The notes: generated from the letters alone by a model not told the origin. A stretch of DNA of 64,000 nt from Escherichia phage Ecwhy_1 (MH791411.1), one strand, 5' to 3'. Numbered from the stretch's first letter, positions 1-15,190 are shown. Made by a program: numbers and translations.

Positions 1-2741
1 CTATTACTGGTGATCTGACCGTATCTGGAACTGTTACCCCTGGTGCAATTGACCTAAGTACTACCGATATTAGTTCTAAATCCCTAAGTACTACTGAAGG
101 TGCTACAATTGGTGGTGACCTAGTTGTTAATGGTTCAATTGATTTAAGTTCTTCCAATGTTTCAGCAATTACCCTTGCTAGTTCTGGTAATACTACCGTT
201 GGTGGTAACCTAGTACTAACAACTGGTGTTGTAACTGGCAGCCCATCTGTATCTGGCAACCTTTCAGTTGCAGGTACTGCGGCAGTAACTGGTGCAACTA
301 CCCTAACTGATATCGTAAATATCGGTAAGAAAGTAACTGTAAGCACTGGTGGTATTCAAGTAGTTGCAGGTGGTATTAATACCGACGCTATATTAGTATC
401 CGGTGATACAACTTTAAACAACACTACTGTAAACACTACCTTAAATGTAACTGGTCAAAGTACAGTAGCTGCACTAAGTGCTGCATCTTTGAATGTATCT
501 GGTGATAGTACTGTTCAAAAACTAACAGTTGAAGGTGAATTGGTTCCACAAGGTGGTATCGACCTAACTGGTGCAGATATTTCTGCTAATAGTCTTGCAA
601 CTGCTTCAACAATCACTGCAACTGGACTAAGCACACTAAGTGGTGGTGTAAGTACTACTAATGTTACTGCATCTGGTACAGTGAATGCTGGTAGTTTGGA
701 TGTTACTAACAACGCAACCGTTGGTGGTAATTTGGGTGTAACTGGTTCATTAACTTCTGGTCCATTGAGTGTAACAGGTATTGCGAATATTACTGGTGTA
801 ACAACTGTTGGTTCATTGGTTTCCGGTGCAGTATCTGGTAGTACTGGTACATTTAGTTCAACATTAGGTGTAACTGGTGCAGCTACATTTGACAATGACG
901 TAACTGTTGAAGGTGTATTCACCCCAGCAGGTGGTTTAGACCTAACAACTTCTGATATTACGGCTAAGAGTTTGTCAGTATCTGAAACTATTCACTCTGA
1001 TGGTGCAGCTTCCTTTGGTGGTAACACAACAGTAGGTGGTACATTGGGTGTAACTGGTGCAGTAACTGCTCCATCGGCAACCCTAAGTGGTACTGGTACT
1101 GCACTAGCAGTAACTAATAATGCAACTATTGGTGGTACATTAGGTGTAACTGGTCAAGCATCACTTGGTTCTATAGTAACTTCTGGCGTTTCTGCAACAA
1201 GTGGCTCTTTCAGTACTACTCTTGGCGTTACTGGTGCTGCGACATTTGGTAACGATGTAACTGTAGTTGGAACACTAACTCCTGGTAGCTTAGATCTAAC
1301 TGGTGCAGATATCTCTGCTAAAACACTAACTCTATCTGAAACATTAAATGCAACAGGTAATACTACCCTTGGTGGAACATTAGGTGTAACTGGTTTAGCA
1401 ACAATTGGTGGAACACTAACGTCTGGTGCAGTAACTGCTCCATCTGCAACCTTGAATGGTTCAGGTACTGGTCTAGCAGTAACTAACAACGCAACCGTTG
1501 GTGGAACATTAGGTGTAGTTGGTCAAACAACACTAGGTTCTGTTAAAACTGGTGCAACTCTAACAGTTGGTACACCATTAGGTGAGCAGCCTGAAACTGT
1601 ACAGATTATGCCAGACACTTATATTGCTGGTAAACTACGTGTTGAAGGTGGTATTAACGCAGATATCGATGTTGGTGGACAAACACTAGAACCGTTTGCA
1701 GTAATAGCATCTGATTCTTTATCTTCTGCTGGTAATATTACTGCTGGTGCAGCAATTATTTCAAGTTCTGCAACAATTGGTGAAGTCGGTTCACAAAACA
1801 ACAACCTAATCGTTAATGGTAACGTTGTAAACAACGGTAACTTCACTGTTACTGGTGTACTAAATGCACAATTGAACCAAGCAGATTCCGATGTAGCTGT
1901 TAAGTCTTTGACTGCAACTAACAACGTATCTGCTGGAACCACATTAAGTGCAGGTACTGCAATTACTGCTGGTACTTCCATCACTGCAACTGGATTACTT
2001 AAAGGTAATACTTTAGAAGTTACTACTACTGGTTCATTTGGTGGTTTAGTAACTATGTCAAGTGGTGCAAATATCACTGGTGCAATGACCACTGCGGGTA
2101 ACATAACAGTGGGTGGCAATATCACTGCAACTGGTACTGCTGGATTCGCTGCAACAACCGTTTCTACAATTACAACAACAGGTTTGGCTACAATTGCAAG
2201 TGCATCCATTACTGGTAACGCAACAGTAGGTGGAACACTAACTGCGAATGGTAACGTAACATTAGGTGACGCAGCGGCAGACGTTCTAACCGTTAATGCA
2301 ACTTCATCATTTAAAGAAAATGCTGTGTTTGATAAGGCAGTAACAGTAACTGGTGCACTAACCACTACTAATGCTAACTTAACTACTACAACAGTAACTA
2401 CCAAAAAGTATGATGTAATCCCAACTCAAGTTACATCATCAGTAATTGCTCCAACCGGAACATGGACTCCAGATGGTACAAGTAACGTATACTTCATCAC
2501 TCTAGACCAAGATACCACGTTGGCTCCAATTACTGGCCTAATTGGTGGTGGTAAAGCTGCATCAGTATACATCTATGTTAAACAAGATACAACTGGTAAC
2601 AGAAACTTTACAACTGATGGTACTTATGCTGTTGTTGATGGTGAACTAAACAAAACTGCTGGTAGTGTGACCATTTACCAAGTAATTTATGATGGTGTAA
2701 GTCCAGTTACTGATTTGTTCATTGCACAACGTACTGCTTAA
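1..2741 (+). CDS. repeat-rich fibrous virion protein (tail-fibre-like), 5' end outside window
   Basis: Frame 3 is open from the first bases of the window to TAA at 2739-2741, so the listed ATG at 489 is internal. Gly/Thr/Val/Ser-rich protein with reiterated modules (TPxxLDLTxxDIxAKSL, GGTLGVTG, AVTAPSATL, LAVTNNATVGG). Confidence 0.7.
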   Translation, partial: ITGDLTVSGTVTPGAIDLSTTDISSKSLSTTEGATIGGDLVVNGSIDLSSSNVSAITLASSGNTTVGGNLVLTTGVVTGSPSVSGNLSVAGTAAVTGATTLTDIVNIGKKVTVSTGGIQVVAGGINTDAILVSGDTTLNNTTVNTTLNVTGQSTVAALSAASLNVSGDSTVQKLTVEGELVPQGGIDLTGADISANSLATASTITATGLSTLSGGVSTTNVTASGTVNAGSLDVTNNATVGGNLGVTGSLTSGPLSVTGIANITGVTTVGSLVSGAVSGSTGTFSSTLGVTGAATFDNDVTVEGVFTPAGGLDLTTSDITAKSLSVSETIHSDGAASFGGNTTVGGTLGVTGAVTAPSATLSGTGTALAVTNNATIGGTLGVTGQASLGSIVTSGVSATSGSFSTTLGVTGAATFGNDVTVVGTLTPGSLDLTGADISAKTLTLSETLNATGNTTLGGTLGVTGLATIGGTLTSGAVTAPSATLNGSGTGLAVTNNATVGGTLGVVGQTTLGSVKTGATLTVGTPLGEQPETVQIMPDTYIAGKLRVEGGINADIDVGGQTLEPFAVIASDSLSSAGNITAGAAIISSSATIGEVGSQNNNLIVNGNVVNNGNFTVTGVLNAQLNQADSDVAVKSLTATNNVSAGTTLSAGTAITAGTSITATGLLKGNTLEVTTTGSFGGLVTMSSGANITGAMTTAGNITVGGNITATGTAGFAATTVSTITTTGLATIASASITGNATVGGTLTANGNVTLGDAAADVLTVNATSSFKENAVFDKAVTVTGALTTTNANLTTTTVTTKKYDVIPTQVTSSVIAPTGTWTPDGTSNVYFITLDQDTTLAPITGLIGGGKAASVYIYVKQDTTGNRNFTTDGTYAVVDGELNKTAGSVTIYQVIYDGVSPVTDLFIAQRTA
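36..1560 (+). repeat. in-frame tandem repeat array (units of roughly 110-120 codons) inside the fibre gene
   Basis: Successive protein units beginning near nt 36, 546, 921 and 1275 share the same motif order (TPxGxLDLTxxDIxAKSL, GGTLGVTG, AVTAPSATL, LAVTNNATxGGTLGV). Confidence 0.7.
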
Positions 2742-2752
2742 TAATTATAATA

Positions 2753-2784
2753 AAAAAAACGGTGTCATCAATTATGGTGACACC
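2753..2784. terminator. hairpin downstream of fibre gene (possible weak or bidirectional terminator)
   Basis: Inverted repeat ggtgtca/tgacacc (2761-2784) preceded by an A-run 2753-2759; no clean T-run on the plus side. Confidence 0.4.
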
Positions 2785-2807
2785 ATCTTAACAAGTGAGG
2801 TAGATAT

Positions 2808-3587
2808 ATGTTTACATATGTAAAAGGTAGTTCTAAAGAAAATTATGAATTGGGTAACATCATCTCCAACCCAGTTGGTGTTAAGGGTTTAAAAGAACGC
2901 CCTGGGGCAACTCCAGATGATGAACAAACATATCGTTATTTGTACAGTGATATCCGTGCACTTTATGGTATTTCAAGTAAAGATGGTTCTGAAATTGAAC
3001 CTAATAACGCTGTTCGCAAAGAAGAGGGTTTCTGGTGGTTGGAATATAAGAATGTTGGTAATGTGAACGCAATTAATGAGAATTTGGAATATATTAAACT
3101 ACAAGATAGTAATCAACCAGTCATCACATTCTTAGAAGAAGCAGAAGGTGAATATAAAGAGTTAACAGTACTGAAAACTTATAATTATGTTGATATGGAC
3201 ATTGCAGCAGTTAAATCTGATCTGAAAGCACGCACAGTATCATCTCGTAGTGATCGTATTAATGCTGGTTATATGTTTAACGGTCATCGTTATAGTACTG
3301 ATCTAGCTGGTCGTCAAATGCTTCTTAATTATTATACACAAGTAACTTCCGGTTCTGATAGCGTTTCGATTTTCCTTGATGACGCAATTGTAAAACTATC
3401 TGCTGCTGAAATGACTCAACTATACACTGAAGCATTTGCTATGGTTGAATCCCTATTTGCAGAGTGTAATAAGCAATGTGCTGACATTGATGCAGTTCCT
3501 GATGCTGATGAAGATGCAATTTATAAAGCACAACAGGCGGCTGTATGGGTATATGAAGGTATTGATATTCCTGAGCGTATTCGTTAA
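2808..3587 (+). CDS. hypothetical protein, possibly a fibre accessory/assembly protein
   Basis: 259-aa ORF with gaggt RBS upstream of the ATG, sitting between two fibre genes; no motif I can name with certainty. Confidence 0.5.
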   Translation: MFTYVKGSSKENYELGNIISNPVGVKGLKERPGATPDDEQTYRYLYSDIRALYGISSKDGSEIEPNNAVRKEEGFWWLEYKNVGNVNAINENLEYIKLQDSNQPVITFLEEAEGEYKELTVLKTYNYVDMDIAAVKSDLKARTVSSRSDRINAGYMFNGHRYSTDLAGRQMLLNYYTQVTSGSDSVSIFLDDAIVKLSAAEMTQLYTEAFAMVESLFAECNKQCADIDAVPDADEDAIYKAQQAAVWVYEGIDIPERIR

Positions 3588-3593
3588 TTTATA

Positions 3594-3632
3594 TTTTTTT
3601 AAAGGTCAACTATGGTTGGCCTTTTCTTTTAT
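3594..3632 (+). terminator. rho-independent terminator
   Basis: Stem aaaggtcaac/gttggccttt (one mismatch) at 3601-3624 followed by a T-rich tract tcttttatc. Confidence 0.55.
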
Positions 3633-3678
3633 CTAAAATAAATACTTAATATATAATCTATTCTGAGGAAATATTTAA

Positions 3679-5643
3679 ATGAGTATAAATCGAATTAGAG
3701 GTGATGGTGGTGTAATTATAGATAGTCAGGCATTTCTAGAATTACCTAAAGCACCGACTAAAGAAACCGCTGATGTGGTTAGATCAGGGATGATTAGATA
3801 CAATAAAGGATGGAAAGCATTTGAAGGTGTACTAGACTTTGAAGATGGTTCAATGGCATATCGACGTTTTGCAAACCTAGATGCAAACGGTAAACTTCTT
3901 ACTTCCCAATTACCAGATTCAGTAACTAGTGGTTTACAATTTGTTGGTACATATAATCCCATCCCAGATGATATCGATCCACCTTTAGCACAAACTCCAC
4001 TACCAGCACCATCACCATCGCTTAATGGTGATTATTATGTCGTTCGTGGTATAATGGATGCCGCACAAGCACATTATGAAGCAAATAATCCACAAACAAG
4101 TCCTGTTACATTTACACCTACAAATCCAACTGGACAAGGTAATTGGATTGAAATTTTATATTATGTTGACTCTAATCCAAATATATCTGGTGCTAAACTA
4201 GTAACATACGCTTTTGCTAGAATTATTACTGCATCTATTCCCAGTACTGGACATGATGGCCTTGAAAATTTAGCAACAGATACTGACTTGACCAAACCAT
4301 TTGCATCTGGTGTTCCAATGAACCAAACTGCACTTTCAGATGGTGATTGGATTATTATAACTGAAGATAAGAATATACGTCTTCGTCAGTCAAGAACAAG
4401 CATTTCCGCTGCTTCAGTATTATATGACAATACTGTAATGATTGCAAATCATCGCCAATTTAGAACAAACGCAGGGACCGTTCAAACATCCATAGATAAC
4501 GTTGTGATTGAGTGTTTACGTAGAACTGGCGATTCCATGTATAATGATGGAACAGACGGCTCTGGGCGTTTTGGGGTGGTGTATGGCAGTGCAGCAGCAC
4601 CAGCATTGACATTTAATAATAATCCGTTTGACCCAACGAACAACCCAGGTAATGACCCAACTAAGTGGTCCGATGCTAATACTGGTATATTCCATCCAGC
4701 AGATGATGCAATTGGTTTTACAACAGCCGGAACTGAGCGTGTTAGAATTAATAATGGAACATTAACATTATTCCAAACTACCGCTACACCAGCAGCTACG
4801 CCAGTAATACGTTTTGATAATGCATCAAACACAAACGTAGGGATAAGTGCAAGTAGTAATATTATTTCTTTAAGTTCAATGAATAAAGTTCAAGTTGAAT
4901 TTAAAAATGGTGAATCACATTTTCATGGAAATATTATTGTAGATGGATCAACATCACTAACTGGTGATTTAAACGCAGGTAACATCACTGCCAGCGGGAA
5001 TTTAGTTGTTAAAGGTAATACAACACTAGGCGACACTACTGGTGACACTATTACAGTTAATGGTGTTAGTACTTATAATGCAAATACTAATTTCAATGGA
5101 ACTAATAACAAATTCAAAAACATAAACTTACTAGAGAATGGTGTATTCACATTAGAAAGTACTACAAACCAAAGTGATATAAAACTACTTGGTGCAGACT
5201 TACGTTTCACTATGGGAAGTTATGCTGATGTAAGTATATATGATAACGGTGTTATTCGTACTCGTTTCAACCGATATGGTATTCAATTACCAGTACTGGC
5301 TACAATTGATAACTCAGTTGGTGTTGATGGTATGATTGCATACTCAAATACCGAACGTACATCGATGCAGAAGGTCCAAGGACAATGGGTTCCAATTGGT
5401 TCTGGTTCTGTACGTACTGACCCGTTTACTGCGTCAGCGTGGGTTTTAAACGGCTCATATTACACATTAACAGTAACTGCTAGTAACATAGTAACTGCTG
5501 AAATTCAAGAACTCGTAAGTACTGGTGTTTACACTCGTGTTGAAGTTGATAGTGTTACATTCAATGGAACAAGCGTAGTGTTCAGTATTCCTGCAACTCC
5601 TGATGTGAGATTTGCCGGACGTACACTGGTTACATTAAGATAA
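3679..5643 (+). CDS. tail fibre protein
   Basis: 654 aa; N-terminus (GMIRYNKGWKAFEG) is the type commonly seen at tail-fibre N-termini, followed by Asn/Thr/Gly-rich beta-type sequence; GAGGAAA RBS. Confidence 0.65.
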   Translation: MSINRIRGDGGVIIDSQAFLELPKAPTKETADVVRSGMIRYNKGWKAFEGVLDFEDGSMAYRRFANLDANGKLLTSQLPDSVTSGLQFVGTYNPIPDDIDPPLAQTPLPAPSPSLNGDYYVVRGIMDAAQAHYEANNPQTSPVTFTPTNPTGQGNWIEILYYVDSNPNISGAKLVTYAFARIITASIPSTGHDGLENLATDTDLTKPFASGVPMNQTALSDGDWIIITEDKNIRLRQSRTSISAASVLYDNTVMIANHRQFRTNAGTVQTSIDNVVIECLRRTGDSMYNDGTDGSGRFGVVYGSAAAPALTFNNNPFDPTNNPGNDPTKWSDANTGIFHPADDAIGFTTAGTERVRINNGTLTLFQTTATPAATPVIRFDNASNTNVGISASSNIISLSSMNKVQVEFKNGESHFHGNIIVDGSTSLTGDLNAGNITASGNLVVKGNTTLGDTTGDTITVNGVSTYNANTNFNGTNNKFKNINLLENGVFTLESTTNQSDIKLLGADLRFTMGSYADVSIYDNGVIRTRFNRYGIQLPVLATIDNSVGVDGMIAYSNTERTSMQKVQGQWVPIGSGSVRTDPFTASAWVLNGSYYTLTVTASNIVTAEIQELVSTGVYTRVEVDSVTFNGTSVVFSIPATPDVRFAGRTLVTLR

Positions 5644-5650
5644 TAAAAAA

Positions 5651-5678
5651 GGGAGACATAAGTCTCCCTTTTCTTTTA
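5651..5678. terminator. bidirectional rho-independent terminator between convergent genes
   Basis: Perfect hairpin gggagac-ataa-gtctccc (5651-5668) flanked by aaaaaa upstream and ttttctttt downstream; lies between the plus-strand fibre gene (ends 5643) and minus-strand thyA (ends 5676). Confidence 0.7.
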
Positions 5679-6605
5679 TACAGCCATTGGTGCTTTGATT
5701 GTTGGCATTGGATCGTAATTAACTAATTTGAAAGAATCCATAGTGAAATCTTCAATATCAGTAATAGTAGGATCTAGCCATAATTCTGGTAATGTACGTG
5801 GTTCACGTTGGAGTTGCTCTTTTACTTGTTCAATATGGTTTTGATAGATATGGCAGTCGCCACCATTCCAAATAAATTCACCAACATCTAACCCTGTAAT
5901 TTGTGCAATCATATGAGTTAGTAGTGAGTAACTACTAATATTAAATGGCACACCAAGGAATAGATCAGCACTACGTTGATGAAGAATACAACTTAGTTTA
6001 CCCTGTACAACACAAAACTGCACAAAGCTATGACAGGGTGGCAAAGTCATAGCATCAAGCTCACCAACGTTCCATGCACTTAGAATGTGACGACGACCGT
6101 ATGGATCAGTATTGATACCTTCAATAACTTGTTTTAGCTGGTCAGTTACACGACGCATAATAACACCATGTGAACCAGTATAATCAATAACTTTATACCC
6201 TTTATCTTTTAGTTCTTGAATTTCTTCAGTACTGGAACTGAATTTATAATCTTCCCATTCACGCCATTGTTTACCATAAACTGGGCCAAGCTCACCATCA
6301 GAATACCCAAGGCTTACACCTTGATTAAGGTAGTTGTCTGTCCAAATTGTTTTCTTTTCTACATCACGTGTCCCGTGTAAAATTTCACACAGACGACGCT
6401 CATCGTGAGAACCTTCAATAAACCATAACAATTCTGAAGTCATTGCTTTCCAAGCCAAACGTTTAGTAGTTACTGCTGGGAAACCTTCTTTTAGGTCAAA
6501 ACGCATTTGTTGTCCGATTAGCTTGATAGTGCCAACACCAGTACGATCAACGCTTTCGACACCTTGATCCAGAATTCTTTGATATAGTTCTTGTAGTTGT
6601 TTCAT
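5676..6605 (-). CDS. thyA: thymidylate synthase (ThyA/Td)
   Basis: Canonical ThyA motifs: RTGVGT, GFPAVTTKRLAWK, GPVYGKQWR, ILSAWN, LPPCH catalytic Cys, LGVPFNISSY. Uninterrupted ORF, no intron. Confidence 0.9.
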   Translation of the reverse strand: MKQLQELYQRILDQGVESVDRTGVGTIKLIGQQMRFDLKEGFPAVTTKRLAWKAMTSELLWFIEGSHDERRLCEILHGTRDVEKKTIWTDNYLNQGVSLGYSDGELGPVYGKQWREWEDYKFSSSTEEIQELKDKGYKVIDYTGSHGVIMRRVTDQLKQVIEGINTDPYGRRHILSAWNVGELDAMTLPPCHSFVQFCVVQGKLSCILHQRSADLFLGVPFNISSYSLLTHMIAQITGLDVGEFIWNGGDCHIYQNHIEQVKEQLQREPRTLPELWLDPTITDIEDFTMDSFKLVNYDPMPTIKAPMAV

Positions 6606-7198
6606 TTTACGTCCTTGAAAAATGTAATAAAGTGTTCCATGTGTTTTTGTGTAGCATTACGTGAACCAATCCCAGTCCAATTACCGTGTGGTGCTGGTAT
6701 TGAGAATGTTTCAGTAAACTCTTTCAGTACTGTATCATAATAAAATACAGAGCGAGTGTTCATATCATAACAATATATTTCTGGATTGTCAACTGAATCC
6801 ATATACATCTGTACGGCCCATGCAGTTCCACCTGAAACTTGCGTAGGTGATGTAATATTTGCAATACAATATACTCTTTTTGTATTAAGTATCTGGTAAC
6901 TATTCCTTGCAAGTAAGTTATATACATACGAACCAGGCTTAGGAACTTTACGGCGTAAAGAGTAACATGCAATGTTTAATTGTTTTAATATTGAACTATC
7001 ACAAAGGATATTGGGTGGAATTTCTAATATAGTATTTTCATCTACGCTGCTTTGGTGACCCTTGAATGAAAAATTTATTACTTCAAATCCATTGTCTTTT
7101 GCATAGATAGAAAAAAGGCGGTCAGCACCTGCTGCCCCGCCACTGAAACATACATTAGATAAACCATTGATTGCTTCATCTAATTCTATTTTATTCAT
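6602..7198 (-). CDS. hypothetical protein with Rossmann-like glycine motif (SLOG/DprA-like?)
   Basis: 198 aa; motif FSGGAAGADRLFSIYA resembles the Gly-rich loop of SLOG/DprA-type folds; stop overlaps the thyA start (ATGA). Family assignment tentative. Confidence 0.5.
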   Translation of the reverse strand: MNKIELDEAINGLSNVCFSGGAAGADRLFSIYAKDNGFEVINFSFKGHQSSVDENTILEIPPNILCDSSILKQLNIACYSLRRKVPKPGSYVYNLLARNSYQILNTKRVYCIANITSPTQVSGGTAWAVQMYMDSVDNPEIYCYDMNTRSVFYYDTVLKEFTETFSIPAPHGNWTGIGSRNATQKHMEHFITFFKDVK

Positions 7199-7203
7199 TT
7201 ATA

Positions 7204-7857
7204 TTATTTTGCTTTACGTTCAGCAAATGCCTGTTTAACTTTCTCAATTGCTTTGGTTTGTGAAATTCCTTCTGGGATTTCAATATAGAAAGTTTTGCTA
7301 TCAGGTGCTACAGGTGTTGCTTGAACTTGTGGACGTAGAGATGGTTCTAAGTTGTAAGCACGTTCAAAGTGCTCTTTAGCCAACTGCTCATAACGTTGTG
7401 CATCTTTAAGTAGTTGCTCAACAATGGTAGCTTCTTCAACAGAAGTATCGACTTCTTGTGGCTTGAATGGGTTGTATTCTTTAACTTTACCATCTTCATG
7501 TTTTTTAGCATCATTATCATTGATTGCGTTGTTTAGAACATCAAGAGAAATCTTACTGTTTCCACCAACATGCATATCAATATCACAAGTACGTGCACGA
7601 CGCAAATGTTGTAGATTATGAAGAACATCTAGCATTTTGCGACCGTCTAGATGACCAATCTTATGCATAACTTCCCACAAATCTACATTCGATTGACCTT
7701 GATTCATTACTAAATCTGCAACAGATTGAGCATATGCTTCAGGAAGTGAGTCGCGATAAACAATGAGACAATGTTCTGGATCATCAGGGAGTGAACGCCA
7801 TACCACAAATACTCGTGAACCCGTATTACGTACTACACCAACGTGACGAATAGCCAT
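7204..7857 (-). CDS. hypothetical protein
   Basis: 217-aa ORF with ATG start, in a tight minus-strand array. Confidence 0.5.
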   Translation of the reverse strand: MAIRHVGVVRNTGSRVFVVWRSLPDDPEHCLIVYRDSLPEAYAQSVADLVMNQGQSNVDLWEVMHKIGHLDGRKMLDVLHNLQHLRRARTCDIDMHVGGNSKISLDVLNNAINDNDAKKHEDGKVKEYNPFKPQEVDTSVEEATIVEQLLKDAQRYEQLAKEHFERAYNLEPSLRPQVQATPVAPDSKTFYIEIPEGISQTKAIEKVKQAFAERKAK

Positions 7858-7859
7858 TA

Positions 7860-8090
7860 TTATTCTCCTTTATTTTGTTCAGCAGCAGCTTGTGCAGCAT
7901 CAGCTTCTTCTTGTGCTTTGATATCTTCGAGTGCAGAGTTAGCAAACTCAACAAACTTAGATACGACTGGAGCAACATCAACAAGTTCTTCGACTTTAAA
8001 TGAATTACGAGCCACAGCAGCTTCCATGATTTTAGCAGCGTTGATTAGGTCGATTAGGGTTAGTTGAATTTTTTCTGGTTCTTGTTCCAT
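7860..8090 (-). CDS. hypothetical small acidic protein
   Basis: Track ORF 7860..8189; the ATG at 8090 (MEQEPEK) has a GGAGAG RBS, the upstream starts do not. Confidence 0.45.
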   Translation of the reverse strand: MEQEPEKIQLTLIDLINAAKIMEAAVARNSFKVEELVDVAPVVSKFVEFANSALEDIKAQEEADAAQAAAEQNKGE

Positions 8091-8199
8091 TTTAATACTC
8101 TCCATGTATGTTGTTACAAATATAATTATATCACCTTTTTCCAAGCTGTCCCGCTGAAAAAAGTAGAGAACGGAATTTTCCGTTCTCATTATTTAGTAC

Positions 8200-9609
8200 T
8201 TAGCTACGTTGACGCTTTTTGTCAGCTTCATATTCGTAGTGTACAGTTTCGCCAAATGGTGCTTGTTTGTTAGGATTACTGTGGATAACAAACAGTGTCT
8301 TACAGTAATCAGGATCACCCCATGACTGCCACGGCTCACCATCTGTAAACATAATAAGCTGTTTAGGCTTATAGTTGTCATGCTTCATATGAACCCATAC
8401 TGCTTCAAAGTCAGTACCACCACCACCTTTCACTGGATATTCGAGAATCTTACTCTCTTCACCAGTTTTGTAATCTTTCACAGTATAAACTTCAGTATCG
8501 AACGTCATGATACGGATTTTAAATTGTTTAAACTGCTTAGTGATACCCAGTACTTCACTGATGAAATCACGGAGCATATCTTCAGAGATAGAACCGGATG
8601 CATCTAGTGCAATTGCAATATCAATATCATCATCTGGTTTCATACCAGGGAAGATTGGATTCCCGTAGAATGAACCAGAACTACCAAAACCAGCACCCCA
8701 TGAACGACGATTAGGATTTTGATAAGTTGCATCAGACTTCAACCAGCTACGCAGTGTGCGGTGAAGTTTGGAACGCCAGTCAATCTTAGGTTCTTTGAAG
8801 TTGTTAATCATACGTGCGATTTCAGCAGGAGTACCACCTGCACGAGCAGCATTCATCATTGCTGTTTTGAAATCATCCATATAATCACGTTTTTGTTTAT
8901 CACTTGAACCACCTTCTTGACCTTCTTGTGGAACGTCATGCTGGTCGATTGTTGTACCTTTGCCTTTACCATCTTTGATATCACCAAAAGTACCGCGTGA
9001 TTTACCTTCACCCTCACCACTACCAGCCTGTGGATTTCCTTCACCTTCTCCGTCTTGATCCTGCTTATCTTCTTCTTCGAGAATGTTATAAATCTCTTCA
9101 GCAGTCATACCATCGTACTTTTTATCGTACAGCCATTGGCTTTGGATTTTACCAATTTTATCACGAACAAGAATCTGGTTAATTGCATAGTCAGCAGCAC
9201 GGTTATAACGCTGCGGGTCACGCATACCACGACGCAAGAAGTGGTCATATGCACAGTGAAGAATCTCATGACAGATAACTGCAATCAGGTTTTCATCGGT
9301 CAAACCTTCTGTCATTTCTTTAAGTTGTTCTTCAGTTACTTCAGGATGTTTCTCACGAATTGCTTCTTCGTATGCTGACTTTTTGGATTGGTCCTGAATA
9401 CCCATGATGAATTCTACGTTGTAGAATAAATGCTTACCATCTACAGCCAAAGTACGACACCATGTGTTGTTTGCAACTGGACGCAGACGAGAAGCCAGTA
9501 CACCAAAGAATGGGAATGTTAGCATTAAAGATGTGCGAGCTAAGATCAGACGATCTTGACATTCTTTCTGGAGAGCCGGAGTAACATCACTGAAACGTTT
9601 ATCTGACAT
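8200..9609 (-). CDS. VWA-domain protein with N-terminal HExxH metallopeptidase-like motif (CobT/DUF2201-like partner of MoxR ATPases)
   Basis: 469 aa; HEILHCAYDH in the N-terminal half; VWA MIDAS-like motif DIAIALDASGSIS in the C-terminal half; Gly/Glu-rich linker; GAGGA RBS. Confidence 0.7.
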   Translation of the reverse strand: MSDKRFSDVTPALQKECQDRLILARTSLMLTFPFFGVLASRLRPVANNTWCRTLAVDGKHLFYNVEFIMGIQDQSKKSAYEEAIREKHPEVTEEQLKEMTEGLTDENLIAVICHEILHCAYDHFLRRGMRDPQRYNRAADYAINQILVRDKIGKIQSQWLYDKKYDGMTAEEIYNILEEEDKQDQDGEGEGNPQAGSGEGEGKSRGTFGDIKDGKGKGTTIDQHDVPQEGQEGGSSDKQKRDYMDDFKTAMMNAARAGGTPAEIARMINNFKEPKIDWRSKLHRTLRSWLKSDATYQNPNRRSWGAGFGSSGSFYGNPIFPGMKPDDDIDIAIALDASGSISEDMLRDFISEVLGITKQFKQFKIRIMTFDTEVYTVKDYKTGEESKILEYPVKGGGGTDFEAVWVHMKHDNYKPKQLIMFTDGEPWQSWGDPDYCKTLFVIHSNPNKQAPFGETVHYEYEADKKRQRS

Positions 9610-9629
9610 TTGTATTTCCTCGTTTAGTT

Positions 9630-9660
9630 AAGATAAAAGAAGGATACCATGTGGTATCCT
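9630..9660 (-). terminator. intergenic hairpin with U-run (partial terminator/attenuator between ATPase and VWA genes)
   Basis: Palindrome aggatacc-atgt-ggtatcct (9641-9660); on the minus strand it is followed by tcttttatct. Confidence 0.45.
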
Positions 9661-9684
9661 CCTTGTCAACACTCTTTTTAATTA

Positions 9685-11013
9685 TTAACCAAGAGAGCGT
9701 GCTTTACGTACTAGGTCAGAGTACTTCATAACGAAGTCTTTAAACGCTGGTACATCTTTAATCGTAATCGCTACTTTATGAAGCGTGATGGTACGAATCG
9801 CCAGTACTGCCAGTTCTGCTTGAGTTGCAGAGAAGTTATGGTCTAGGAAGGTGATGAAGTTGTTGCACAGCTTACCCCAATCTTCCACTGGTAGACGTTG
9901 TTCTTGCTTCTCATTGTAGAGGTCGATAATTTTGTAAACCAGATTCAGAGTGATGAAGTAGTTCGCGGAAATATCAAGCGAAGCATCAATCTCTTTAATC
10001 TCACCCTGTAGGATGGACATGGTATCTGGTAGTTTAGCTACGTTATCAACATACTCGATGTATTCAGTTGCTACGCCTTCACCAACACGACCTGCAATCA
10101 TCGCACGGAACACTTCTTTATCAATGTTCTTAACTTTCTTCAGATCTTCGTAGCGTGCTACTGCTTCCCATGAACGTGGAGAAGTACCACCACAGTGAGA
10201 AGGATCTTGTGGGCTAAGGGTGTTGAAGTGTTTAGCACCAGTGTTGTTGATGAACGCTACAGTTGCTGGGTTCAAACGCTTACCAATCGCATAATCGTTA
10301 ATCCAATCTTGATGATAAGGAATCATTTCGATGTGGGTCATACGGTCACGCAGTGGTGTAGCTAGAGAGAACGTTACACCGCCATCAGTTTCACGGTTAC
10401 CTGCTGCGAGAATCAGTGCAGTCTTAGGTAGCTTCATCTCACCAACACAACGGTCGAGGATTAGCTGATAAGACGCTGCCTGTACAATCGGCATTGCAGA
10501 GTTGATTTCGTCAAACAGAATAACACCTTTCCAATCTGGAGACAGTTTCAGTACTTTAGGTGCTGCCCACACAACTGCTGTTTCAGCGATGTAATCTTGT
10601 GCACTAGCCAGTTCAGATTCAATCAGTTGCTTACCATCCATATCAAGGAACACTTTCTCTGGAACTGGGATACCGCGAAGGTCACTTGGTTCAATCTGAG
10701 ACAAACGGAAATCGATAAAGTTAGTGTCTTGGTCGATTAGTTTGGCTTCAAACGCTGCCAGTTCACGGCGAAGTTGATCAGCATTTTCAGTATCAGCTTC
10801 GATTTGTTGTTTCATGAACTCAATTTTTGCCACGTTATCTTTACGCAGTGGGTAGTTCTCATCAGCGTATTGACGTGCGATAGCAGATTTACCGATACCA
10901 GGGCTACCCCAAATCATCAGGCTATCTTGAATCATGTCAGCCAGTGCCATTGCTTCTTTAGCTTTCTTAGGAGTCAGTTTTACGTTCAGGATATCGTTGT
11001 TTTGAGTAGACAT
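9685..11013 (-). CDS. MoxR/CobS-like AAA+ ATPase
   Basis: 442 aa; Walker A GSPGIGKS, Walker B ILFDEIN, and overall MoxR/CobS-like arrangement; AAGGAAA RBS. Confidence 0.8.
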   Translation of the reverse strand: MSTQNNDILNVKLTPKKAKEAMALADMIQDSLMIWGSPGIGKSAIARQYADENYPLRKDNVAKIEFMKQQIEADTENADQLRRELAAFEAKLIDQDTNFIDFRLSQIEPSDLRGIPVPEKVFLDMDGKQLIESELASAQDYIAETAVVWAAPKVLKLSPDWKGVILFDEINSAMPIVQAASYQLILDRCVGEMKLPKTALILAAGNRETDGGVTFSLATPLRDRMTHIEMIPYHQDWINDYAIGKRLNPATVAFINNTGAKHFNTLSPQDPSHCGGTSPRSWEAVARYEDLKKVKNIDKEVFRAMIAGRVGEGVATEYIEYVDNVAKLPDTMSILQGEIKEIDASLDISANYFITLNLVYKIIDLYNEKQEQRLPVEDWGKLCNNFITFLDHNFSATQAELAVLAIRTITLHKVAITIKDVPAFKDFVMKYSDLVRKARSLG

Positions 11014-11079
11014 GTATATTTTCCTTTTGTTGGATAAAATCGTTTAGGTTTCTATTATAGCCAATCCGTGGGCAAAAGT

Positions 11080-11122
11080 AAAGGAACTGTGTTAAAAGAA
11101 TTTTTAACTTATCAGTTCCTTT
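11080..11122 (-). promoter_or_regulatory. 10-bp-stem hairpin in the 5' leader of the ATPase gene
   Basis: Inverted repeat aaaggaactg (11080-11089) / cagttccttt (11113-11122), 23-nt loop, between the promoters and the ATG at 11013. Confidence 0.5.
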
Positions 11123-11179
11123 GTTACTTCATGAATCATCCGTGTATTTAAAAAGGCATTTCTCTTTGCCGTCTTGATG

Positions 11180-11212
11180 TGGTCATTATATCACATCGTT
11201 CAGGCTTGTCAA
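11180..11212 (-). promoter_or_regulatory. sigma70-type promoter P1 (consensus -35/-10, extended -10, A-rich UP-like tract)
   Basis: Minus strand reads TTGACA (plus 11207-11212), 16-nt spacer, TGaTATAAT (plus 11185-11193); A-rich tract upstream of -35. Confidence 0.55.
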
Positions 11213-11271
11213 CAACTTTTTTATTTCTTTTTCAATCTCACATCTTGTGATTTTGAAAACTTGCTTCGTGG

Positions 11272-11304
11272 TGGTCATTATAACACATCATTCGGCGTTG
11301 TCAA
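11272..11304 (-). promoter_or_regulatory. sigma70-type promoter P2 (tandem copy of P1)
   Basis: Minus strand reads TTGACA (plus 11299-11304), 16-nt spacer, TGtTATAAT (plus 11277-11285); part of a ~60-bp direct repeat with P1. Confidence 0.55.
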
Positions 11305-11329
11305 CATCTTTTTTTCTTTATTTTCGAAG

Positions 11330-11707
11330 CTACATGTGCATCGAAAATAACATTCTAAAATCATCACCACACAATGTTAACTCTGTAACTATCATTGCGT
11401 CCGAGAGGTATATGTACTGCCCTTCTACATAGTAGGGTGAAGTACATATCCTATCAAGCGATGTAAAGATTATAGAACTTTTGAACTCTCTTTGCAAGGG
11501 GATTTTTGTAAATTCGTAAAGAATGTTTTCTTTACAAATTGTATATCCAAACTTGCTAAGTCTTAAACCACCGCCAGTTCTGAAATTTTCAAAAATTGAC
11601 ATCAGAAGCATACGGTCTGTTAATTCAGCGTCTGATCCATGTACTTCTCTAACTTTTAAAAGTACATCGTTTTGAAATTCAGTACTGTTGTGTGGTTCAG
11701 GAATCAT
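11330..11707 (-). CDS. hypothetical protein
   Basis: 125-aa ORF ending just upstream of the tandem promoters. Confidence 0.45.
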   Translation of the reverse strand: MIPEPHNSTEFQNDVLLKVREVHGSDAELTDRMLLMSIFENFRTGGGLRLSKFGYTICKENILYEFTKIPLQREFKSSIIFTSLDRICTSPYYVEGQYIYLSDAMIVTELTLCGDDFRMLFSMHM

Positions 11708-11710
11708 AAA

Positions 11711-12103
11711 TTACATCCCCACGAAACCCTGTCTTGCTGCATATGAAGGAGCATCTTTAACTTTATAGTCTTGGACACCATCTTTACCAATTTTCGGACC
11801 CATATCTTTGGTTCCGAAGCAGCAATCAGTGGATTCATCAACTTCTTCAGTACTTTCATCATTATATCGAACATCCGATAAAATGTCACACGCTTTTTGA
11901 AGCTTTTCTACGATTTCTTTTTGATCTTCACCTGATTTAACCTTATCCACAATGTGGATAAGGCATTCGGTGATATCTTTAAGTAAATCGGTGGCAACAG
12001 CATCAGAAGGAGTCTCAACTGCAAAACTTTCTTCTTCAGTAGATTCTTCACTAGAAGTGATTTCATCTAATGCTTCAACCAATTCACGATAATTATATCC
12101 CAT
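11711..12103 (-). CDS. hypothetical acidic protein
   Basis: 130 aa, Glu/Asp-rich; ATG at 12103 abuts the stop of the upstream gene. Confidence 0.5.
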   Translation of the reverse strand: MGYNYRELVEALDEITSSEESTEEESFAVETPSDAVATDLLKDITECLIHIVDKVKSGEDQKEIVEKLQKACDILSDVRYNDESTEEVDESTDCCFGTKDMGPKIGKDGVQDYKVKDAPSYAARQGFVGM

Positions 12104-12104
12104 C

Positions 12105-13097
12105 TTATTTGTCCCCTAGAAATTGTTGATATTTCTTCTGGAGACTTTCGAAAATGTCTTCGACTTCTTCATCGCTTTCATCTTCTAGTTCTTCGTTACC
12201 TTCCACTGACTCATCACTCTCATTAACATTGAGTGGGTTGTCACCTAGAGCAGTACCTGGAAACTTAGGTTCAAATTTGTGAACACGGTTCTCGTTACCG
12301 TCATTGTCATAGTACTCTGGTTCAGGACGATTGTCAACATCTTCATCAACGACACGTCTCCAGTAGAACTTGTTACCCTTGGTAATAACAACAAAGTGGT
12401 CACCTTCTACACCATTAGTTTTAGCTTGACCGTCACGAACAGCATCAGCTTCAGTGTTGTAAGGACCAAAATCAGTACTGTCACCTTGTTCTTCATCTTC
12501 AGAGATGGTTAGGTCTGGTAGGAAAGTGTTTTCTTCAACTTTAACTTCAGTATCTGGGTTACCTTCTACTGAATATTCATCTTCTGGTTCGTCTTGAAGA
12601 CCAGCTAGAGATAGCATACGACTGAAATCGAATTCTTCTTCGATGATTTCTTCTTCTTCTTCCTCTTCTTCAACTGATTCTAGTTGAGGTTGACCGGAAA
12701 GATCTAAAGAAAACTCTTCTTCATCTGCAACACCAGGCTCTTCGAACTCTGCATCCATACTTACTTCTTCAGAATCACCACCAAAATCACCAGCTTCAGC
12801 AGATAGTGAGTCAGCAGCTACTTCCAATGGGTCTTCAACTGGTGCATCAATCGCACCATCCATTGTACCACCAACTTCTTCTTCAGCACCCGCACCAATG
12901 GAATCCATGTCGAGTGGAGCGATTGGTGGTAGAGAAGGGGTCATAGACCCCATAGAAGGAACTGGAGCAGCAACAGGAGAAGCTTGACGCTCTGCTTGAC
13001 CAGCTAATGCAAGCATACGAGATAGTGTTTCTAGATCTTCAGATTCTAGACCTGCGATATCGATTTTAACTTGTGCTTCATTAATTTTTTTAGCCAT
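12105..13097 (-). CDS. highly acidic low-complexity protein (poly-Glu tract; repeated SRML[AS]LAG motif)
   Basis: 330 aa; run EEEEEEEEIIEEE; motif LSRMLALAGQ and FSRMLSLAGLQ occur twice; AAGGA RBS and ATG. Confidence 0.6.
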   Translation of the reverse strand: MAKKINEAQVKIDIAGLESEDLETLSRMLALAGQAERQASPVAAPVPSMGSMTPSLPPIAPLDMDSIGAGAEEEVGGTMDGAIDAPVEDPLEVAADSLSAEAGDFGGDSEEVSMDAEFEEPGVADEEEFSLDLSGQPQLESVEEEEEEEEIIEEEFDFSRMLSLAGLQDEPEDEYSVEGNPDTEVKVEENTFLPDLTISEDEEQGDSTDFGPYNTEADAVRDGQAKTNGVEGDHFVVITKGNKFYWRRVVDEDVDNRPEPEYYDNDGNENRVHKFEPKFPGTALGDNPLNVNESDESVEGNEELEDESDEEVEDIFESLQKKYQQFLGDK

Positions 13098-13119
13098 TTT
13101 AAATAAATCCTTTTAGTTA

Positions 13120-14631
13120 TCAATCATTCTTATTTAATGATTTTAAAATTTGCACTGTTTCATCCTTTTTACCAGATAGTAAAATGTCAGCAGCAATTAG
13201 AGAAACCTCATCACCACGCGTTAAGAGTACTGTAATTTTCTTAGCGTAAGGTGATTCTTTAATTCGTGAAGCCAATGATTGAACTTCATCACCAGGAGCA
13301 GGAACTTCAGGTTCTGGCTCTGATACAGGTTCTGGTTCTTTAGTAGGTTCAGCTTTTGGTTCAACTACATCAGTACTTGATACTTCAGCATCTACTTTCT
13401 CTTCAGGTTCTTCTTCTTTCTTATCAGCATGTTCTGCATCATAACGAGCAAGAATGTCATCAGCAGTTGATTTTGGAATCAATTTACCTTCTGCACTGAT
13501 AAAGCGGTTACCACCGATATAAGAATACTCTGTGCCTTTCTTAGATTTTACTTTAGTTCCGATTTTCATTGCACCAGAACTGTTATGGCGAATTATATCA
13601 CGTTGAGCAGCACGTTCAACACTTTTTGCAGCACTAGAATTTAGTTGTTTTTTAGTTTCTACATCAAACCATGCATTTTTTTGTTTAATGTATGTTTTAC
13701 CTTTATTTGAAGTAATGCGGTAACCATGTGGAACCACAACAGATTCAGTTTCTTCAATCTCTTCATCTGCTTCATTAATGGATTCTTTTGTTGCGAATAC
13801 TGGCTGTTTTACTGGTTGTTTAGGTTGTTCTGGCTTTTCACCTGAACCAAAACGTTGTTCACCTGATTCATGATCACCAGTTAGTGAAGGAAAATCACCA
13901 GGGTTAGCCTTAACAAATTGCTGATATGCATTAAAGATTACATGTGCATTTTGTTCTGGAATTACAACATTACCATCATTATCACAAAATTCTTTACCAT
14001 TCCATTCTGAACGAGTATTACCTTGTACTAATGTAGATTTAATTGGAATTAGTTTGTTTTTTGGTGCTAATTGGCGAGCAATACGCATACCTTCATCGGA
14101 AAGTTTACGTGTCATTGCTGGGTCAACTGGACGTCCAGATTTTGCATCAACAAAACGGTGATTTTTAGGGATGAATTTAAATCCACTAACTTCCATACCT
14201 GCTGGAATAGAAATATCATCAGCATATGGTGGAAGGATATAGAATTTTAGGGAGTTCCATTCTTTTTGTAGAGTTTCTTTTGAAACATTATATACACGGT
14301 GGTCATCTGCCATTAGTTCAGTGATAATTTCACTTTCAGTTAGTAGAATTCCATCTTTAGAATTGAAACGATTTTCACCAAGAAATGTACACTCTTTACC
14401 TTCAAGAATATATTTTTTACCAATTTTATATTCACTAGAAGATAGATTGTGCTCAACAATCTGTTGTCGAGCACTTGCGTACATGGATGGGTATTTTTTA
14501 GGGTCTACCATTAACATATTATTGTCGTTAAACCAGAAACCTTCTAGAAATACATATTTGCCACCAGTGTGAGAAGTATATACATATCCATTAGGTACTG
14601 TGGTAGTTTCAGTACTGAAAAAATTATCCAT
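13120..14631 (-). CDS. hypothetical protein with four internal small-domain repeats
   Basis: Track ORF 13120..14673; the ATG at 14631 (MDNFFSTE) has an AAGGAG RBS. Four related segments (GGKYVFLEGFWF, KIGKKYILEGKECTFLGENRF, GKTYIKQKNAWF, KKGTEYSYIGGNRF). Confidence 0.55.
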   Translation of the reverse strand: MDNFFSTETTTVPNGYVYTSHTGGKYVFLEGFWFNDNNMLMVDPKKYPSMYASARQQIVEHNLSSSEYKIGKKYILEGKECTFLGENRFNSKDGILLTESEIITELMADDHRVYNVSKETLQKEWNSLKFYILPPYADDISIPAGMEVSGFKFIPKNHRFVDAKSGRPVDPAMTRKLSDEGMRIARQLAPKNKLIPIKSTLVQGNTRSEWNGKEFCDNDGNVVIPEQNAHVIFNAYQQFVKANPGDFPSLTGDHESGEQRFGSGEKPEQPKQPVKQPVFATKESINEADEEIEETESVVVPHGYRITSNKGKTYIKQKNAWFDVETKKQLNSSAAKSVERAAQRDIIRHNSSGAMKIGTKVKSKKGTEYSYIGGNRFISAEGKLIPKSTADDILARYDAEHADKKEEEPEEKVDAEVSSTDVVEPKAEPTKEPEPVSEPEPEVPAPGDEVQSLASRIKESPYAKKITVLLTRGDEVSLIAADILLSGKKDETVQILKSLNKND

Positions 14632-14644
14632 GTGTTGATTCTCC

Positions 14645-15190
14645 TTAAGAAAGCATACGCAAAAGTTGTTCACGCTGCTCTGGACTTAATTTTTGTAGAG
14701 CATCAGGGATACTAGAACCTTGTGCTTTTGGCTGTTCCTGTGGTGCTGGTTGTGGAGCATTGTCAGGTTGAGCTTGTGGTGCAGGACGTTGTTGTTCTTC
14801 ACCTTTATCATCATCACGATAATCATTCATCAAGTCACGTGCTGCTGCCAATAGAGCAGAACCAACATCTTTAGGAGTAAAAGTACGACGACTGTTATTT
14901 CCCAGGTGTTTTATATCAAGGTTATTTCCTTTGAAGAATTGTGCAACATCAGCATATGGTACTGATGGCTGTGCTTTACCGTATTTGCGACCAACATAGC
15001 GTTTAAATTCAGCCCAAAGACGGTTTGCTTCTGCACCAACTTCTTGTGCACCTTGTTCTACTTGACCACTACCGAAAAAGCCTTTTACTTTTCCTTTTGC
15101 ACTATCTACTGCACTTTGTGAACGACTATATGGACGAGCTTCATTTAGCTCTTCATCATTATAGTCTAACATTTCATTAAGTATACTCAT
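14645..15190 (-). CDS. hypothetical protein (Gln/Pro-rich, C-terminal LLRMLS motif)
   Basis: 181-aa ORF; C-terminus EQREQLLRMLS resembles the SRMLxLAG motif of the neighbouring acidic protein. Confidence 0.5.
   Translation of the reverse strand: MSILNEMLDYNDEELNEARPYSRSQSAVDSAKGKVKGFFGSGQVEQGAQEVGAEANRLWAEFKRYVGRKYGKAQPSVPYADVAQFFKGNNLDIKHLGNNSRRTFTPKDVGSALLAAARDLMNDYRDDDKGEEQQRPAPQAQPDNAPQPAPQEQPKAQGSSIPDALQKLSPEQREQLLRMLS

Follow-up and report, generated by a model that had tools for sequence, protein, structure and literature searches.

Background

The locus described here is a block of tail-fibre-type genes at positions 1-5678 of a 64,000-nucleotide (nt) stretch of Escherichia phage Ecwhy_1 (MH791411.1); the whole stretch is called the window throughout. 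Among the closest known systems is the long tail fibre of phage phiTE, a trimer on the baseplate wedge and sheath initiator, in which only the N-terminal, baseplate-binding residues 14-171 have been modelled and which beyond its attachment is a highly extended predicted beta-helix with flexible regions (PMC11972413). The phiTE_241 protein (9CUY/9MJN chain g) is like the Ecwhy_1 fibre in its homologous C-terminal domain, in its T/G-rich composition and in belonging to a myovirus of an enterobacterial host, and it resembles the full-length ortholog of the Ecwhy_1 gene over about 330 amino acids (aa) of shaft that carry the same unit-opening motif, (V/I)(T/S)G(T)xxxxxDLxxxDIxxxS. Unlike the Ecwhy_1 fibre, it has 793 aa as against about 1,900 aa and far fewer modules, and no DUF4376 gene, nor any gene like the third open reading frame (ORF) of the Ecwhy_1 block, adjoins it in the 6.5 kb examined. 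The modelled residues 14-171 have no counterpart in the window.

In Alteromonas phage V22 and in Campylobacter CJIE1, the DUF4376 protein whose gene directly follows a fibre gene is a chaperone that the fibre requires (PMC7289586, PMC7882524), and the DUF4376 protein of Campylobacter F341 is a fibre chaperone as well. Like the protein encoded in the window, V22 gp27, A5 gp9, the CJIE1 protein and F341_034 carry DUF4376 at the C-terminus, are encoded immediately 3' of a fibre gene, have 180-260 aa and show a variable N-terminal half. A role in folding or trimerisation has been shown for V22 gp27 and the CJIE1 protein, while the Asteriusvirus protein is known from its sequence.

The orthologs in Rak2-like jumbo phages (121Q gp571, phAPEC6 gp256, GAP32_220, CBB_226 and 7t3_0421) occupy the same place in the gene order as the Ecwhy_1 fibre and have the C-terminal domain in common with it, but they differ in length (1557-1988 aa), in unit count and in the shaft, which is only 30-75% identical. 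Among them, 7t3_0421 is equivalent to the sole long tail fibre annotated in fENko-Kae01. Virion location, wherever it is given below, comes from published mass spectrometry of orthologs, which for the fibre detected two of these proteins, phAPEC6 gp256 with 15 peptides (PMC7247149) and CBB_226 with 10 (PMC5259590). A further comparison is with T4 gp34, since fibres of this type are labelled 'long tail fiber proximal subunit' in several GenBank records; the likeness lies in a very long myovirus fibre with internal repeats that is followed by smaller fibre-associated genes. The 912 aa encoded in the window gave no match at E up to 1 to a PDB set holding 4UXG and 5NXF, and the gp34 label is, on this comparison, an analogy and not a demonstrated homology.

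The distal end of an Asteriusvirus tail-fibre cluster

In all likelihood, bases 1-5678 close the tail-fibre cluster of a jumbo coliphage, a myovirus of the genus Asteriusvirus (121Q/PBECO4-like); they are its distal (3') end and encode a fibre of about 1,900 aa together with a putative chaperone for it and a conserved virion protein. The main features are as follows.

1-2741, plus strand: 3' part of a long tail-fibre gene (frame 3, last 912 codons, stop codon 2739-2741)
2808-3587, plus strand: 259-aa DUF4376 protein, putative intermolecular tail-fibre chaperone (domain at aa 136-237, nt 3213-3518)
3679-5643, plus strand: 654-aa conserved virion protein of Rak2-like jumbo phages (121Q gp569, GAP32_218; CBB_224 by synteny)
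5645-5674, both strands: bidirectional intrinsic terminator common to the convergent 654-aa gene and thyA

By megablast, 35 phage records match bases 1-5700, all of them jumbo myoviruses of E. coli or Salmonella whose taxonomy lines give the genus as Asteriusvirus. The best relative is Escherichia phage fEgEco12, with 98.7% DNA identity over 100% of the query, followed by WPEC5, Turkey3, WPEC3, BF17 and EC.P1 at 95-98.5% identity; the 121Q/PBECO4 group matches at about 81% identity, beginning at base 1398. The order of fibre gene, DUF4376 gene, gene for a protein of about 650 aa and convergent thyA is common to fEgEco12, WPEC3/5, Turkey3, BF17 and EC.P1, and it recurs in 121Q, vB_Ec-M-J, phAPEC6, GAP32 and 7t3.

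The sequence-only reading of this DNA had described an island of fibre-type genes that forms the only plus-strand coding block, and the window does contain just three non-embedded plus-strand frames of at least 100 aa (3-2741, 2808-3587 and 3679-5643), the remainder being minus-strand coding. All the elements that this reading listed lie where it had placed them. In the relatives the plus-strand block does not stop at what is here the left edge but extends for another 12 kb or more, which makes the 'island' the last part of a cluster of about 17 kb. Upstream, that cluster also encodes a paralogous fibre of 1638-1644 aa, a 299-aa structural protein, a colanidase tailspike and a 375-aa tail protein. 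In fEgEco12 the two large fibre genes lie in tandem at 3958-8892 (1644 aa) and 9042-14762 (1906 aa), and BLASTP gives 60% identity between the paralogues over the first 1,240 aa or so, whereas phages of the 121Q type, including 121Q and phAPEC6, carry only one large fibre gene. With two such genes in the lineage of the window, there is therefore reiteration at the level of the whole gene too.

The fibre frame is open from base 3, and its 5' part, about 2.96 kb, lies outside the left edge of the window. A TTG start at 489, proposed by an ORF lister, is an artefact of the gene being cut by the edge. The full gene, as seen in fEgEco12 and five more close relatives, has 5721 nt (1906 aa), and the fragment in the window is 97.6% identical in amino acid sequence to residues 988-1906 of the 1906-aa fEgEco12 g316. 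The gene identities reported here were established by comparisons made in this analysis. That this first ORF is of the fibre type, as had been claimed, is confirmed by its match to the tail-fibre family phrog_4549 (E = 5.5e-89, in six matched stretches) and by its homology to the phiTE protein: a PDB sequence search with the fragment returned 9CUY chain g, which is phiTE_241, at E = 5.1e-14 as the sole relative with a solved structure, and in a BLASTP comparison the full-length fEgEco12 ortholog aligned to phiTE_241 over about 330 aa at 32% identity (E = 3e-24), the unit motif included. No NCBIfam model matched any of the three proteins, and in Pfam the fibre gave only bactofilin-like matches below threshold.

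Several side observations concern the cluster. The fEgEco12 colanidase tailspike (783-2924) and the adjoining 299-aa structural protein (2939-3838) are 41% identical over their first 105 aa or so and may have an attachment domain in common; the 259-aa and 654-aa proteins have no N-terminal adaptor domain in common with the proteins of the upstream fibre cluster. In vB_Ec-M-J the upstream fibre paralogue is split into two ORFs (2161-7081 of the stretch examined), and the CMSTMSU record shows the whole cluster as numerous short ORFs under the label 'flagellar hook-length control protein'. Assembly frameshifts and subsequent mis-annotation probably explain both cases. Antisense ORFs of up to 261 aa lie on the minus strand within the fibre gene (515-922, 1154-1489 and 1619-2404), opposite a gene that homology supports strongly, and are probably by-products of its biased codon content.

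Repeat units of the fibre

The visible part of the fibre falls into an array of four units, a further stretch of shaft and a C-terminal domain.

9-518, plus strand: unit W1 (aa 3-172, 170 aa; unit 3 of the six in the full-length gene; profile E = 2.9e-43; anchor at aa 16)
519-896, plus strand: unit W2 (aa 173-298, 126 aa; profile E = 1.1e-21)
897-1250, plus strand: unit W3 (aa 299-416, 118 aa; 66% aa identity to W4)
1251-1604, plus strand: unit W4, last of the array (aa 417-534, 118 aa; profile E = 8.1e-38)
1605-2414, plus strand: shaft outside the unit array (6-residue periodicity; 88-99% identity among fibre types; both micro-indel sites)
2415-2738, plus strand: C-terminal fibre domain (aa ~805-912; 94-100% identical across Asteriusvirus fibre types)

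In-frame units of roughly 110-120 codons had been proposed from the sequence. Four in-frame units are indeed present, but only the last two, at 118 aa, are of that size. Each unit opens with the motif xVxGxxxPxGxDL(S/T)xxDIxxxxL; its positions in the fragment are residues 16, 186, 312 and 430, a spacing of 170, 126 and 118 aa. As a self-BLASTP of the fragment returned the diagonal only, the repeat anatomy was worked out here with Smith-Waterman comparisons, shuffled controls and a unit profile. Identity between units is 47-66% at the amino acid level, and a profile of the six units of the full-length ortholog found every unit, at E = 1e-21 to 1e-49. In the DNA, direct repeats of 62-85% identity occur at offsets of 378, 354 and 369 nt; the best pair matches 1054-1172, in W3, with 1423-1541 at 85% identity over 119 nt, the other pairs lie at 62-82% (for example 75% between 523-593, in W2, and 901-971), and the longest exact repeat is 23 nt.

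Such repeats could in principle be an artefact of biased composition, without any history of duplication, as 65% of the residues are T, G, V, A or S, Tandem Repeats Finder reports no long-period array, and even the shaft outside the array scores 124-134 against the units where the maximum for shuffled sequences is 112. The shuffles themselves refute this explanation: with composition preserved they score 8-26 standard deviations (SD) below the real comparisons between units, the distance being about 8 SD for W1 against the other units, 8-15.5 SD for W2 and 26 SD for W3 against W4. The 25-residue motif, moreover, stands in register at every unit start, the DNA matches of up to 85% over 119 nt are co-linear at a constant in-frame offset, and the units match the profile one by one at E = 1e-21 to 1e-43. 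A purely compositional origin is therefore scarcely credible.

The large repeats are thus real, but they are old and degenerate. W3 and W4 form the youngest pair, and even at positions where the two have the same amino acid they have the same codon at only 59%, so that even the youngest duplication must be old. Both are missing from the upstream paralogue g317 (about 247 aa), the 121Q gene is about one unit shorter where W4 would lie, and similarity detectable by megablast starts inside W4 both for vB_Ec-M-J (from about 1545) and for the 121Q-type phages (from about 1398). Beneath the units there is a finer order, with glycine and hydrophobic residues showing autocorrelation peaks at lags of 6, 12 and 18 residues.

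The C-terminal domain, that is, the last 105 aa or so, ends annotated tail fibres in 307 phage records when a phage collection is searched by tblastn. Its carriers include rV5-like phages, phAPEC8, PVP-SE1, phiTE, GAP32 and 7t3, and it is also found in 9CUY chain g.

Variation in fibre length

The in-frame repeats had led to the suggestion that the fibre is a variable-length locus, with the copy number of its 110-120-codon repeats changing by unequal homologous recombination within phage populations. Fibre types do differ in unit number, with six units in the window type, about seven in the type represented by contigs L015 and L019, eight in the vB_Ec-M-J type and four or five in the upstream paralogue g317; g317 is without W3 and W4, the 121Q gene without the equivalent of W4; and a profile built from the four units of the window matches 287 protein clusters out of 1.84 billion, in proteins of 155-3958 aa with 2-40 matched stretches each. 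The lengths compared in this analysis tell otherwise for close relatives. In the six closest isolates (from Finland, Thailand (two), the Czech Republic, Poland and China) the fibre has 1906 aa throughout, with six units at the same positions. Contigs chosen for a 654-aa protein that matches that of the window at 100% identity yielded eight full fibre genes, three of 1906 aa, two of 1988 aa and one each of 1900, 1937 and 1948 aa. All ten full-length genes of the window type, which come from independent sources, namely the six isolates from five countries and four other assemblies, have six units at the same positions, and nine of them have 1906 aa, the tenth (contig L017) having 1900. This fixed six-unit architecture among relatives is the outcome that the sequence-only reading had itself named as refuting its proposal.

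Within a fibre type the unit number is constant, and every difference in length amounts to a single micro-repeat of 6 or 11 aa (18 or 33 nt), the only repeats for which a one-unit change of copy number was seen. Two features of the window bear on this.

1935-1988, plus strand: tandem hexapeptide array (18-nt units GTTLSA-GTAITA-GTSITA; the unit 1935-1952 is missing in L017 and 121Q)
2043-2250, plus strand: mosaic patch, vB_Ec-M-J-like (3-nt gap after 2087 and an 18-nt loss, LAVTGA, after 2231)

The hexapeptide array was found by Tandem Repeats Finder with a period of 18 and 2.2 copies at 1949-1988, and L017 differs by the absence of LSAGTA, one 18-nt unit of this array. Similarly, L019 has one more GDVSGAAATFS than L015 in an array of 11-aa repeats (GDVSGxxATFS) at about fibre residue 580, in the N-terminal third of the protein and outside the window, while the two fibres are otherwise 99.4% identical. 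The gaps in the patch at 2043-2250 make the Ecwhy_1 fibre 7 aa shorter than the 1906-aa type. The visible fibre gene is fEgEco12-like outside the patch, which is, judged by these alignments, a small mosaic recombination tract.

Differences between types are of another order. Three divergent shaft types adjoin an identical 654-aa gene, namely the window type, the vB_Ec-M-J type (eight units, 1988 aa) and the third type of L015 and L019 (about seven units, 1937 or 1948 aa), and a fourth, the 121Q/phAPEC6 type (1841 aa, six or seven units), adjoins a 654-aa protein about 90% identical to that of the window. Shafts of different types are 30-80% identical per 100-aa bin, and 66-75% in amino acid sequence among the contigs with the identical third gene, while the first 200 or so and the last 300 or so residues are 90-100% identical between types (92-100% for the C-terminal 300 aa). 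Recent gene conversion from the upstream paralogue g317 was considered as a source of the other shaft types and rejected, there being no segment nearly identical to g317.

Unequal recombination between the large units on short timescales is thus largely refuted, and as an account of length variation within present phage populations we hold it to be very unlikely. DNA identity between units is only 62-85% and the longest exact repeat 23 nt, so that near-identical repeats long enough for efficient homologous recombination are not present between the large units; the 59% codon agreement of W3 and W4 speaks for an old duplication; no copy-number polymorphism of the 118-170-aa units was found in the ten window-type genes; and the types that do differ in unit number differ by 25-35% in sequence, as old lineages do and recent slippage does not. 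What survives of the proposal is change over long timescales, on which types and paralogues have come to differ in unit number. Unequal crossing-over between large units shows no sign of contributing on short ones. A point against this conclusion is that stability of copy number was judged on assembled genomes rather than reads, and assemblers can collapse repeats; repeats as diverged as these should, however, assemble correctly. Megablast matches in WPEC5, WPEC3, EC.P1 and CMSTMSU extend over 6.2-10 kb for a query of 5.7 kb, which could suggest extra repeat copies, but the orthologous genes of WPEC3, WPEC5 and EC.P1 have 5721 nt and the CMSTMSU record is broken into small ORFs; the longer matches most likely contain extra aligned pieces joined from outside the orthologous stretch.

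The genes downstream of the fibre

The 259-aa ORF at 2808-3587, which had been singled out as accessory in type, deserves that description. Its C-terminal half (residues 136-237 of 259) matches Pfam PF14301 (DUF4376) with 37.8 bits against a cut-off of 25 (E = 2.8e-9), the protein matches phrog_17968, and the gene starts 66 nt after the stop codon of the fibre. The syntenic GAP32_219 carries DUF4376 in the same position directly downstream of the fibre gene, and 7t3 has a similar small ORF there, known by its position and size. By analogy with the phages named above, the 259-aa protein is a putative intermolecular chaperone of the fibre, and a possible role for it would be to fold or cap the conserved C-terminal domain. 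CBB_225, equated with it by gene order, reached 68% coverage and was abundant in virion mass spectrometry (PMC5259590). In this respect the protein would be unlike a chaperone that caps the fibre transiently; in the relatives it appears to stay with the virion and may be a lasting component.

The 654-aa protein matches phrog_14293, a family of unknown function, from end to end. Its homologs are found in 71 phage records, all of jumbo phages of the Rak2-like group, with about 50% full-length identity across genera, and the hosts of these phages belong to eight further genera, among them Klebsiella, Erwinia, Yersinia, Serratia and Xanthomonas; in some metagenomic relatives the N-terminal 55-73% of the protein is retained and the C-terminus is a different one. 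CBB_224, its counterpart by synteny, was found in virions by mass spectrometry (PMC5259590). An AlphaFold2 model is beta-rich and of several domains, with a pLDDT (predicted local distance difference test) of 77 and a pTM (predicted template modelling score) of 0.37. Foldseek comparison of this model with the PDB gave nothing at E <= 0.001, the best matches being a Mu fibre and T4 gp34 (E = 0.02-0.1, template modelling (TM) score about 0.1), and in BFVD it matched many predicted proteins of fibre type, again with TM of about 0.1, which on such models supports only a general 'fibre-like' class. The ORF at 3679-5643 is therefore as it had been described, but its designation as a fibre is unproven, having only weak structural matches of a fibre-like kind behind it. 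For now, 'conserved virion protein of the fibre/baseplate region' is a better name for it than 'fibre'.

Structure and place of the fibre

From the homology to the phiTE fibre we infer a trimeric, mostly beta-helical long fibre, its length set by the number of modules. This, with attachment to the baseplate as in phiTE, is our best guess by analogy. The 6-residue periodicity and the sub-threshold bactofilin-like matches are compatible with a beta-helical fold and not diagnostic of it. The shaft would then consist of old, diverged duplications of a module of 118-170 aa, built on a 6-residue beta-strand periodicity that would permit the gain or loss of single hexapeptides without a break in register, and shaft length would follow from the number of modules.

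Several points weigh against this picture of the module. The trimeric beta-helix has no structure behind it, the bactofilin-like matches in Pfam are below threshold, and a monomer AlphaFold2 model of the C-terminal 210 aa, made from an alignment of three sequences, had a pLDDT of 45 and was unusable. In the BLASTP comparison of the full-length fEgEco12 ortholog, residues 1-270 of the phiTE protein lie in no aligned segment among those listed, and the identity of 9CUY chain g with the long tail fibre of the phiTE paper is something we infer from length and composition, the paper itself making no such statement. Orthologs of the 259-aa and 654-aa proteins are missing from the table of phAPEC6 virion proteins (PMC7247149). 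A conserved tip with a variable shaft is the reverse of the usual pattern of receptor-binding fibres. Finally, electron microscopy of phAPEC6 and CBB shows only six short baseplate fibres together with long 'hairs' on sheath and capsid, and a protein of about 1,900 aa thus fits a hair better than a classical baseplate fibre.

If so, the large fibre and its tandem paralogue would not form a baseplate fibre; they would be the long, flexible 'hairy' fibres that Asteriusvirus and CBB virions bear on their sheath rings and capsid. These hairs are without an assigned gene in phAPEC6, 121Q, fEgEco12 and CBB, and those of CBB measure 119 +/- 10 nm, compared with about 29 nm for its baseplate fibres. 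The fibres of T4 have a rise of 0.55-0.65 Å per residue. At that rise about 1,900 aa would span some 105-125 nm, similar to the CBB hairs, although this argument from length is a rough extrapolation. The distribution of the gene points the same way in part, with homologs in hairy phages (CBB_226 and phAPEC6 gp256, both in virions) and a reported absence from Rak2, which is not described as hairy, but GAP32 is not described as hairy either and has an ortholog, so that the correlation between gene and hairs is not decisive. Moreover, the phiTE fibre, the only relative placed experimentally, sits on the baseplate wedge (PMC11972413), and the gene clusters with the colanidase tailspike and other tail proteins. 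We consider assignment to the hairs unlikely, and attachment at the baseplate is retained as the working reading.

It has also to be asked whether the repeat-built protein is a flagellum-engaging or 'hairy' fibre whose specificity lies along the shaft and not at the tip. Old, divergent shaft types beside identical neighbouring genes, with the C-terminal 300 aa 92-100% identical, are a pointer to specificity in the shaft, and a conserved tip with a variable shaft would fit binding along the shaft. Asteriusvirus SHEFM2K is reported as flagellotropic in a work cited in PMC11895373, and phiTE, with its homologous fibre, is also flagellotropic. In the flagellum-specific phage fENko-Kae01 the sole annotated long tail fibre is about 99% identical to 7t3 QCW18942, which is the positional homolog of the Ecwhy_1 fibre gene and has a homologous C-terminal domain. 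We regard shaft-borne specificity of this kind as quite improbable on present evidence, and the points about hairs and flagella are offered as leads, not results.

Terminators

The thyA gene occupies 5676-6605 on the minus strand, and the hairpin at 5645-5674 lies between the stop codon of the 654-aa gene (5641-5643) and that of thyA (5676-5678). Its stem has 11-13 bp with five G-C pairs, an A-run precedes it and a T-run follows it, so that T-runs are present on both strands, and folding yields -17.5 kcal/mol for the plus strand and -20.3 kcal/mol for the minus strand. We found a hairpin of the same position and architecture in 121Q, GAP32 and 7t3, with different stems (GGGAGAC, GGGAGAAC and GGAGCC). 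A position kept across genera while the stem sequence has changed argues for function, and the proposal of a bidirectional terminator shared with thyA is upheld. All three plus-strand genes run towards thyA and most likely end at this common terminator. Two other hairpins, weaker than that at 5645-5674, lie between the genes.

2761-2784, plus strand: hairpin after the fibre gene (10-bp stem, A-run before it; intergenic stretch -17.7 kcal/mol)
3601-3624, plus strand: terminator-like hairpin after the DUF4376 gene, followed by a T-run

The first was not found by a scan with a terminator consensus and is a weak terminator candidate. As a side observation on thyA, the published mass spectrometry of phAPEC6 virions lists thymidylate synthase (gp259c, three peptides; PMC7247149), which is odd for a metabolic enzyme and may be carry-over.

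Other genes in the window

Beyond thyA, a 469-aa protein is encoded at 8200-9609 on the minus strand, and its homologs in contigs carry DUF2201_N and DUF2201. The label 'HNH endonuclease' that it bears in several GenBank relatives is not backed by its domain content. In relatives the adjoining gene (9688-11043, minus strand) is annotated as a MoxR-type ATPase. ARAGORN found no tRNA or tmRNA genes in the window (1-64000).

Conclusions

Whole divergent shaft types would be swapped by recombination in the conserved flanks, and large modules would be gained or lost only on the timescale of species divergence, so that diversity would come mainly from replacement of the shaft between conserved ends, together with the micro-repeat slippage that is observed. 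The conserved 654-aa partner protein would complete the fibre module.

The module is an ordinary structural one, already present in dozens of deposited genomes, but its genes can now be labelled on evidence, as a phiTE-type long fibre (and not as 'T4 gp34-like'), a putative DUF4376 fibre chaperone and a conserved Rak2-like virion protein. The way in which fibre length changes, by micro-repeat steps and probably by exchange of whole shafts, may be useful for engineering and typing these phages, which are candidates for therapy. If the leads on hairs and flagella prove true, the modules would bind laterally, wrapping around or entangling flagellar filaments, and the shaft types would track the diversity of flagellin. 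The locus provides a concrete candidate gene both for the 'hairy' fibres and for the dependence on flagella that has been reported in this phage group.

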